The translations under genes and the position numbers were made by a program. A stretch of 64,000 nt of DNA from Escherichia phage EcSzw-2, in the sequence record MH791400.1. One strand, written 5' to 3'. Shown here in pieces: positions 7,854-8,838 of this stretch; the first letter of the stretch is position 1, and every line of letters begins with the position of its first letter. The notes beneath the pieces were generated by a model. The model saw only the letters and a list, made by a program, of their open reading frames with translations, did not search any database and was not told the DNA's origin.

Positions 7854-8636
7854 TTAGTTCTTTGCAGCTAAGAACTTGATGTTAGAAATGTCTACAATTG
7901 CTTCAGCATCTTTCTCATTTGCTGCAAGAATGTACACATCAGGTTCACTTCCAAATGTCACTGCACGTTGCATACTACCTTTCAACGGCGGGGTAACTTG
8001 AGCGTTACTTAGAGACATTCTCTCAACCGGAGGGTTACTCTGATGTACCTTGTTCTTACGATGCCTGAAGAGGATAACTCCGTCTTCGTTGACAACGGCT
8101 ACCCCTGCAAAGTATTGTGGTTCACTGTGATTACCCCATGTTGACAGAGTACTAAACATTGCCTCTTCAAATACGTAAAGGTAAACATCAACATCTTTCA
8201 AGATGTGATTCATAATTACCACAACAGCTTTCGGGTCAAGTCCACCAATACCTGCACCAATCATTGGGAGACCAACTTTCTTCAGTTGATTCACTTTGCA
8301 GTACTGGCTAAGACTCAACAAAGCACTCTCAAGAGCATTGTAACGAGCATCTTTACCAGTCTTCAACTGAGTGTATAGGTTAGCAATACGGCCTTGTTTA
8401 AGACGTGATACAGAGAGTTTACCAAGCAGTTTCTGACAAGGTTTATGCTCTCTTCCTCCTGCTACACGGTAGACTTCGGCATCAGTTTCATAGGCTTTTG
8501 GGTAACCTTTAGAAATCTTGTAAGCAATACCTGCACCCATCAGGTTCATACAGTTGCAACCGTGACCAATGATATCAAACTTACCTTTTTCAAAGTCTGC
8601 GAAGATATCACCTTTGATGACTTTTACAATACCCAT
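7854..8636 (-). CDS. macro-domain protein (ADP-ribose binding/hydrolase fold) with ~100-aa C-terminal extension
   Basis: N-terminus VIKGDIF...DIIGHGCNCMNLMGAGIAYKI and ...VGLPMIGAGIGGLD are macro-domain Gly-rich ADP-ribose-binding motifs; 260 aa. Confidence 0.7.
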   Translation of the reverse strand: MGIVKVIKGDIFADFEKGKFDIIGHGCNCMNLMGAGIAYKISKGYPKAYETDAEVYRVAGGREHKPCQKLLGKLSVSRLKQGRIANLYTQLKTGKDARYNALESALLSLSQYCKVNQLKKVGLPMIGAGIGGLDPKAVVVIMNHILKDVDVYLYVFEEAMFSTLSTWGNHSEPQYFAGVAVVNEDGVILFRHRKNKVHQSNPPVERMSLSNAQVTPPLKGSMQRAVTFGSEPDVYILAANEKDAEAIVDISNIKFLAAKN

Positions 8637-8637
8637 C

Positions 8638-8838
8638 TTACCATTTCTCCCATGATTCTTTATCTTCAGAAGGTTTTACACGTTGACCTTCATGGTCTAC
8701 CCAGATTCCACCACAACCTTCACAGAGTGTTGGCATAGCATAGCCAGCTTTGAACTCTTCTTCAGAGATAAGACCTCTCAAGTCTCCTGTATCACGTCCA
8801 AACAGTTCGATGGAACAATCTTTGCAGAAATCAGCCAT
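8638..8838 (-). CDS. small zinc-ribbon protein (66 aa)
   Basis: CKDC...CEGCGG Cys pairs; stop abuts the macro gene start. Confidence 0.55.
   Translation of the reverse strand: MADFCKDCSIELFGRDTGDLRGLISEEEFKAGYAMPTLCEGCGGIWVDHEGQRVKPSEDKESWEKW

Follow-up and report, generated by a model that had tools for sequence, protein, structure and literature searches.

A Two-Domain Macro Protein of Felix O1-Like Phages as a Candidate Adpp-Type ADP-Ribose-1''-Phosphate Phosphatase

In the window analyzed here (the whole stretch of 64,000 nucleotides of Escherichia phage EcSzw-2, record MH791400.1), the gene EcSzw1_17 encodes a macro domain fused to a C-terminal orphan domain, and we put at about 0.5 the probability that its product is an Adpp-type macro hydrolase that would feed the rebuilding of NAD+ by the phage. 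In this proposal, we infer both the substrate, ADP-ribose-1''-phosphate (ADPR-1''P), and the coupling to the NARP1 pathway. The Adpp reading is preferred because Adpp is the only homologue that is experimentally anchored, because the His that is essential in it is conserved in EcSzw1_17, and because the partner pathway is present in the genome. That the gene is annotated as a "phosphatase" was already known, and the biochemistry of one family member came out in 2026; what our analysis would add is that Felix O1-like phages, Bas63 included, may carry an unlinked Adpp and that, in these phages, the macro enzyme is fused to a conserved orphan domain for which structural modeling predicts a confident fold.

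RES-domain aRES proteins, found in Escherichia coli UC5 among others, defend bacteria by phosphorolysing NAD+ into nicotinamide and ADPR-1''-phosphate, a product that NARP1 (Adps + Namat) cannot use (10.64898/2026.01.28.702374). Adpp, a Poa1p-like phage macro protein, converts ADPR-1P into ADPR and thereby restores NAD+ rebuilding (Osterman et al., bioRxiv 10.64898/2026.01.28.702374, January 2026). NARP1-AP needs Adpp to overcome aRES, and the Adpp that was assayed comes from Vibrio phage Gary (KNV71_gp137), its H24A variant being inactive and devoid of anti-defence effect (10.64898/2026.01.28.702374). For EcSzw1_17, the corresponding succession of events would be that a host aRES (RES-type defence) phosphorolyses NAD+ into nicotinamide and ADP-ribose-1''-phosphate, unusable by NARP1; that the macro cleft of EcSzw1_17 binds this ADPR-1''P and strips its 1''-phosphate to yield free ADP-ribose; that Adps pyrophosphorylates the freed ADP-ribose; and that Namat joins the pyrophosphorylated ADP-ribose to nicotinamide, by which NAD+ would be rebuilt.

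Genomic Context

The coordinates of the locus are collected in table 1. Locus tags of the form EcSzw1_n are those of MH791413.1 (Escherichia phage EcSzw_1; Ounavirinae, Suspvirus), 100% identical over the 2 kb tested, and a window coordinate equals the MH791413.1 coordinate + 567; the GenBank record is flagged UNVERIFIED. Ambiguous bases are found in the window, where they produce an X in the translations of the ORFs at 5450..5545 and 6947..7135 (at ~5540 and ~6960).

Table 1. Features of the EcSzw1_17 locus and of the NARP1 genes in window coordinates
Feature	Position	Strand	Details
EcSzw1_17, macro + C-terminal domain	7854..8636	minus	260 aa; coordinates include stop codon; ATG start; GenBank "putative phosphatase"
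Macro domain, residues 1-157 (approximate)	8166..8636	minus	Pfam Macro, Foldseek, Achelous orthologue match, motif alignment
C-terminal domain, residues 158-260 (approximate)	7857..8165	minus	Predicted linker helix, six-stranded beta meander, C-terminal helix
Key macro codons	H25 8562-8564; N28 8553-8555; T89-Q90 8367-8372	minus	Read from sequence
EcSzw1_18, CxxC...CxxC zinc-ribbon-like mini-protein, 66 aa	8638..8838	minus	ATG start; phrog_2210
Intrinsic-terminator-like hairpin, 17 pairs, then T run	7783..7824	minus	Consensus scan only
Adps, PRPP-synthetase-like ADPR pyrophosphokinase, first NARP1 gene	18185..19066	minus	Pfam Pribosyltran/Pribosyl_synth; bas63_0079 78% identical
Namat, NAMPT-like nicotinamide ADPR transferase, second NARP1 gene	16313..18139	minus	Pfam NAPRTase/NAMPT_N; bas63_0080 74.5% identical

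EcSzw1_18 and EcSzw1_17 close a long, tightly packed leftward cluster of early genes that comprises, in transcription order, Adps, Namat, rIIA, rIIB, an SLT-like gene, a HAD/PNKP-like phosphatase, a spanin pair, and several small ORFs. Because a terminator-like hairpin and T run, detected by consensus scan only, begin ~30 nt past the macro stop, EcSzw1_17 would be the last gene of a leftward transcription unit.

NARP1 was discovered in the BASEL phage Bas63, a Felixounavirus, in which it consists of genes 79-80 (10.1101/2024.02.11.579819). The initial annotation of the window had read the corresponding genes as a NAMPT/Prs pair and had seen in them, together with the macro gene, an investment of the genome in ADP-ribose/NAD+ chemistry. 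The genes and the theme hold; by orthology to the Bas63 genes, the pair is NARP1 (Namat/Adps) and not the classical NMN salvage pair. Bas63 (MZ501086.1) displays the same gene order, with Adps (0079), Namat (0080), rIIA, and rIIB leading to 0094 (66 aa) and 0095 ("putative phosphatase," 261 aa), its zinc-ribbon and macro pair lying 15 genes downstream of NARP1. The identity between the window and Bas63 amounts to 85% for the zinc-ribbon protein and 68.6% for the macro protein (table 1 for Adps and Namat). In distant metagenomic relatives with both macro domain and tail (35-39% identity), a Namat-like gene is likewise found on the same strand, ~9-10 kb upstream. However, because these relatives all have Ounavirinae-like backbones, the synteny is that of the whole backbone, and the co-occurrence of macro gene and NARP1 is not independent evidence.

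The preprint scored macro genes only within two genes of Adps/Namat and found them in 15% of NARP1 phages (10.64898/2026.01.28.702374). The EcSzw1_17 gene falls outside this distance, as it lies downstream of Namat, on the same strand, 7.7 kb and ~15 genes away; the macro gene of Ounavirinae would therefore not have been scored.

Several other features of the region can be described. Just beyond the macro terminator, a non-coding stretch of ~320 bp (7490-7810) contains a 27-nt repeat in four copies (ACCTGCACAAWTYNAAAATGA..., starting at 7494, 7603, 7687, and 7760) as well as a longer 47-nt repeat family; these sequences may serve the next leftward unit as a series of promoters or as regulatory sites. 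The plus-strand GenBank ORF EcSzw1_16 (~7467-7775) overlies this repeat stretch and looks doubtful. Within the cluster, the minus-strand gene at 10824-11561 bears the annotation "putative polynucleotide kinase," its similarity being weak and confined to the HAD phosphatase domain of PNKP (E = 0.0029); a DxDG motif (TDIDGV) is present, no P-loop was seen by eye, and every distant relative keeps the gene upstream of its macro gene. Two overlapping ORFs at 9784-10294 (minus strand) are the counterparts of an i-spanin and an o-spanin annotated as a pair in Bas63; a lipobox (LMSGC) is present in the o-spanin candidate, and the pair belongs to the early-gene cluster, at a great distance from the holin (46149-46523 of the record). 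Lastly, EcSzw1_52 (30070-30570, minus strand) is annotated "putative NAD synthetase"; it was rejected as a part of the NAD+ theme, since Pfam identifies it as a SegE-type GIY-YIG homing endonuclease (E = 3.2e-27).

Macro Domain and Active Site

The initial annotation had recognized a macro domain by the motifs GDIF, IIGHGCNCMNLMGAGIAYKI, and PMIGAGIGGLD. All three are present in EcSzw1_17, and the assignment is corroborated by a match of residues 25-142 to Pfam Macro (PF01661; E = 2.7e-8, 34.2 bits for a gathering cut-off of 22). In PHROGs, the full-length protein matches phrog_335, "phosphatase" (E = 1.3e-96). Structure prediction of the full protein, which had been proposed as a check, returned a confident macro fold with a well-folded tail (AlphaFold2 model built on 21 homologues; pLDDT 88.5, pTM 0.87), and the best PDB matches of this model in Foldseek are TARG1 (4.9e-11), DarG (6.5e-10), and Poa1p (1.2e-9), with TM scores of 0.75-0.86 on target. 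By sequence, the best PDB match is yeast Poa1p, followed by TARG1 and DarG. The closest link to the experimental work is provided by Achelous gp176, which is 98.7% identical to Gary Adpp and located between Adps and Namat: residues 3-154 of EcSzw1_17 align with it at 30% identity (E = 6e-17), H25 pairing with H24.

The subfamily is characterized by the succession of motifs H-x-C-N-C ... MG-x-G-I-A ... N-[LV]-Y-x-Q ... G-x-G-x-G-G, the GAGIGG loop of EcSzw1_17 corresponding to residues 127-132. H25, which at least 90% of the family retains, lines up with the corresponding His in TARG1, Poa1p, and Gary Adpp (H24 in the latter), and N28, which is invariant, aligns with the active-site Asn of DarG (N22) and AdfM (N23). 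Q90, within the invariant motif N-L-Y-T-Q, is aligned by both HMMER and MAFFT with the catalytic Lys of TARG1 (K84), of DarG (K80 in each of the two sequences used, from Thermus [Taq] and Mycobacterium), and of AdfM. The initial annotation had made its reading depend on the catalytic residues of the macro fold; here, the outcome is divided, as His25 and Asn28 are kept while the TARG1/DarG-type Lys is replaced by Gln90. Because the replacing Gln is invariant, EcSzw1_17 is not a Lys-type DarG/TARG1 enzyme. On these alignments, its macro domain is of the Poa1p/TARG1-like (ALC1-like) class and of a His/Gln subtype. By analogy with SCO6735, the loss of the Lys need not equal a loss of activity. Indeed, catalysis by SCO6735 depends on Gln85, which stands at the catalytic-Lys position, and the enzyme cleaves ADPr linked to thymidine on DNA (PMC9411070).

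C-Terminal Domain

The initial annotation had noted that the C-terminal ~100 aa carry no recognizable motif, and this description stands: the tail (residues ~158-260) has no match in Pfam, NCBIfam, or PADLOC, and no relatives by sequence or fold were found beyond the EcSzw1_17 family, yet it is conserved in every full-length homologue, down to ~33% identity. Its fold, beta-rich (table 1), is predicted confidently, with pLDDT values of 81-94 in the context of the full protein and of 84 when modeled alone. Because the near-invariant residues are limited to P173, G178, and Y235, with no invariant polar residue, the tail offers no candidate catalytic residue. It is near-neutral (pI 6.3) and changes at roughly double the pace of the enzyme domain (52% vs. 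80% identity to Bas63). The reading that we favor for it is non-enzymatic, as a putative module for binding or targeting.

Two candidate functions were considered and rejected. The tail or the zinc-ribbon protein might have been an aRad1-like inhibitor of aRES, but an HMM built from the seven published aRad1a-g sequences gave a best E value of 0.35 against all ORFs of the window. A relation to RyR/RyDEP was likewise discarded, as there is no Pfam RyR match and the enzyme family is unrelated.

Zinc-Ribbon-Like Mini-Protein

A 66-aa CxxC...CxxC protein encoded upstream with abutting stop and start, as the initial annotation had it, is accurate: the TAA of EcSzw1_18 (8638-8640) is one base from the ATG of the macro gene (8634-8636; ...TAA G ATG...), with a GGAG ~10 nt upstream of this ATG, and the four cysteines (C5xxC8...C39xxC42) are invariant, together with H49 and W63, across Ounavirinae-like lineages. 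The protein is acidic (pI 4.5) and belongs to phrog_2210, which has no assigned function (E = 3.7e-38). EcSzw1_18 is co-transcribed with the macro gene, and the two are probably translationally coupled.

The co-operonic status that had been proposed for the pair thus holds for transcription but not for a joint function: because either gene occurs without the other, their pairing is not evidence of a common role. EcSzw1_18 has a homologue in 835 phage records, and homologues at 62-68% identity are found in Vequintavirus and T5-like phages without a neighboring macro gene; in Vequintavirus, the zinc-ribbon gene is the last of its operon and no macro gene lies nearby, and in T5-like phages it is located inside the tRNA cluster. 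In three distant relatives of the macro protein, a four-Cys gene of similar length precedes the macro gene, its stop overlapping or abutting the macro start in two and falling 2 nt short of it in the other, whereas the gene upstream of a fourth distant macro + tail relative is unrelated (103 aa, non-Cys). A role of the zinc ribbon as obligate partner of the macro protein was rejected on account of these stand-alone homologues and of the macro + tail lineage devoid of it, and EcSzw1_18 is, as its occurrence indicates, an independently distributed accessory gene. The spread of phrog_2210 over unrelated phage groups can be illustrated by HildyBeyeler (Escherichia, T5-like; locus L008, 2501-2698) and Murica (locus L007, 2501-2701).

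Distribution and Phylogeny of the Macro Family

Macro domains have been reported in about 41% of myoviruses (PMC9503650). With either EcSzw1_17 or Achelous gp176 as the tblastn query, macro homologues were found in ~2,700-2,850 phage records, and the host-genus counts obtained with the two queries are very similar. Among Escherichia phage records, 998 contain a macro homologue versus 177 an Adps homologue; because of this large excess, and because homologues exist in T4-like phages, T4 itself included, the role of the family is not limited to feeding NARP1.

An alignment and a neighbor-joining (NJ) tree were produced from EcSzw1_17, the NARP1-operon macros of Table S1 of the Adpp preprint, a homologue from a T4-like phage, metagenomic homologues that stand alone, TARG1, DarG from two sources, and AdfM. 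In this crude NJ distance tree, all phage "H-x-x-N ... Q" proteins form one clade, which contains every NARP1-operon macro of that table and in which the Ounavirinae macros are nested among them, and the Lys-type TARG1, DarG, and AdfM fall outside of it, the motif columns of the alignment being unambiguous.

Some members of the family have distinctive contexts. In the T4-like phage slur02 (locus L009, 1498-1977), a stand-alone macro homologue at 34% identity lies directly downstream of vs (annotated as a valyl-tRNA synthetase modifier), T4-like phages being apparently without NARP1; we found no functional literature on the T4-like macro homologue beside vs. P0024, a metagenomic protein of 339 aa, fuses a homologue of the macro subfamily to a cREC_REC "cyclic-phosphate processing receiver" domain (Pfam, 4.7e-7), a fusion that hints that some members may handle ADPR cyclic phosphate or RNA-repair by-products. 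In some GenBank records, homologues are labeled O-acetyl-ADP-ribose deacetylase.

Functional Interpretation

The Adpp reading is favored by the Pfam Macro match, by fold matches that include Poa1p, by a best PDB sequence match that is a known ADPR-1''P phosphatase, by membership in the clade of the NARP1-operon macros, by the presence of orthologous NARP1 genes on the same strand with a synteny identical to that of Bas63, and by the fact that aRES has been described from E. coli, the host species of the phage. Against it, the identity to the proven enzyme is only ~30%, and the T4-like homologues are equally close or closer (34%); the macro gene lies outside the NARP1 operon; and the second domain may point to a further or another function. 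Moreover, the UC5-type aRES is rare in E. coli: its allele, which carries the label "RES family NAD+ phosphorylase" in the genomes of this species, was found in at least 12 of 5,426 complete genomes (a DNA search, hence a lower bound).

Among the alternatives, the one that survives best, albeit still unlikely, is that EcSzw1_17 hydrolyzes another ADPr conjugate, such as O-acetyl-ADPr, ADPR cyclic phosphate, the cADPR/His-ADPR signals of Thoeris, or ADP-ribosylated protein or RNA (e.g., the CmdT-type modification of mRNA), and would disarm a signal or a modification instead of feeding NARP1. Macro domains of this class are promiscuous, and comparative genomics has proposed small diffusible ADPr derivatives as the main targets of phage macro domains; the cREC fusion of P0024, the wide occurrence of the family in phages apparently without NARP1, and the GenBank label of deacetylase given to some homologues would be compatible with such substrates. 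However, a single member of the family has been assayed, and its substrate is ADPR-1P; the cleavage of Thoeris signals in connection with NARP1 has been attributed to a RyR-domain enzyme of a different family. In this regard, the degradation of ADPR-derived immune signals that the initial annotation had put forward is displaced, the closest characterized relative being the ADPR-1''P phosphatase Adpp instead.

A rather improbable alternative is that EcSzw1_17 is a DNA ADP-ribosyl glycohydrolase that would remove DarT2-type thymidine ADP-ribosylation from phage ssDNA in the manner of an AdfM-like orphan antitoxin. As one reading, it would use the Gln-type, water-mediated mechanism of SCO6735, with the tail in the role of the second domain of DarG, binding DarT or DNA. 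The DarG macro domain is indeed the best match in both NCBIfam and PADLOC (E = 1.3e-12 and 1.3e-13), DarG is among the top fold matches, N28 aligns with the Asn conserved in DarG and AdfM, and AdfM itself sets the precedent of a macro antitoxin mimic in a phage. Furthermore, SCO6735, in which a Gln replaces the catalytic Lys, is an efficient hydrolase of dT-ADPr and even inhibits DarT by binding (PMC9411070), and T4, which has a macro homologue, is reported to be resistant to DarTG2 via an unidentified factor (PMC11825919). However, the DarG models match the macro part only (positions 3-149 of 338 for NCBIfam, at 47.7 bits for a cut-off of 250; positions 17-145 of 329 for PADLOC), the catalytic Lys of DarG, TARG1, and AdfM is an invariant Gln in EcSzw1_17, and the protein clusters with the Adpp-type macros rather than with DarG/AdfM. 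SCO6735 is itself a weak match (E = 0.033), the MGKG motif, whose Lys matters in SCO6735 and DarG when DNA is the substrate, has an Ala at that place in EcSzw1_17, and the tail is near-neutral rather than basic. Of the reversal of DarT-type ADP-ribosylation suggested in the initial annotation, a DarG-type mechanism is thus contradicted by the replacement of Lys by Gln, while a Gln-type cleavage of dT-ADPr, as in SCO6735, may still be envisaged. The Adpp, anti-DarT, and other-substrate roles need not be mutually exclusive, since macro enzymes are promiscuous.

More doubtful is the idea of a bifunctional counter-defence factor, in which the macro domain would detoxify or recycle an ADP-ribose derivative and the fast-evolving orphan tail would be a new fold that binds a partner directly. 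Conceivable partners are, on the host side, an immune protein such as an aRES/RES NADase or DarT2 and, on the phage side, Adps or Namat, in which case ADPR would be channeled. If this were true, Bas63, the model NARP1 phage, would already hold an unrecognized, unlinked "NARP1-AP" arm. Finally, a non-catalytic ADP-ribose-binding module (sponge or sensor) with the tail delivering the output is hardly credible: the absence of the classical catalytic Lys and the rigid attachment of the second domain predicted by the model (pTM 0.87) would suit it, but H25, N28, and Q90 are conserved across a clade that includes an active enzyme, Adpp, in which His24 is essential, and catalysis by SCO6735 requires its Gln at the place of the Lys (PMC9411070).

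The depletion and reconstitution of NAD+ constitute a current front in the arms race between phages and bacteria. If the homologues of Felix O1-like phages work as Adpp, NARP1-AP-type resistance to RES-type defences would be more common than reported. The orphan tail, for its part, is a defined module of 100 residues, confidently folded in prediction, and may reasonably be considered as a possible new binding fold within an anti-defence protein; should it bind nothing relevant, the gene would be one more member of a very common family of phage macro proteins.

Comparison With Known Systems

With TARG1/OARD1, DarG, and AdfM (PhiKZ gp104), EcSzw1_17 shares the fold class, the Asn of DarG and AdfM, and the phosphate-binding glycine loops. 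It differs from them by the Gln that stands in place of K84/K80, by the absence of a counterpart to Asp125 of TARG1, and by its position in a separate clade, and, unlike DarG, it has a tail with no similarity to the DarT-binding domain. Streptomyces coelicolor SCO6735 (PDB 5E3B) resembles it by a Gln at the catalytic-Lys position, with His-x-x-Asn upstream, an equivalence that is transitive, as it passes through the TARG1/DarG alignment and published residue numbers, 5E3B being outside the best five PDB matches; direct similarity is weak (E = 0.033), and the MGKG lysine for DNA binding is absent in EcSzw1_17.

Saccharomyces cerevisiae Poa1p (PDB 6LFQ-6LFU), an ADPR-1''-phosphate phosphatase, resembles EcSzw1_17 by an almost identical N-terminal motif (IHSCNC..GGGIAYQL vs. 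GHGCNC..GAGIAYKI) and by its fold (Foldseek E = 1.2e-9, TM 0.76 on target), but only the first ~60 residues align confidently, the protein acts in eukaryotic tRNA splicing, and it has no C-terminal domain. With Gary Adpp, EcSzw1_17 has in common the phrog_335 macro subfamily, the essential His, and the presence of NARP1 in the same genome. Whereas Adpp is a single domain of ~158 aa encoded between Adps and Namat, EcSzw1_17 has 260 aa with an orphan domain, and its gene comes 15 genes after Namat, as the last of a separate transcription unit.
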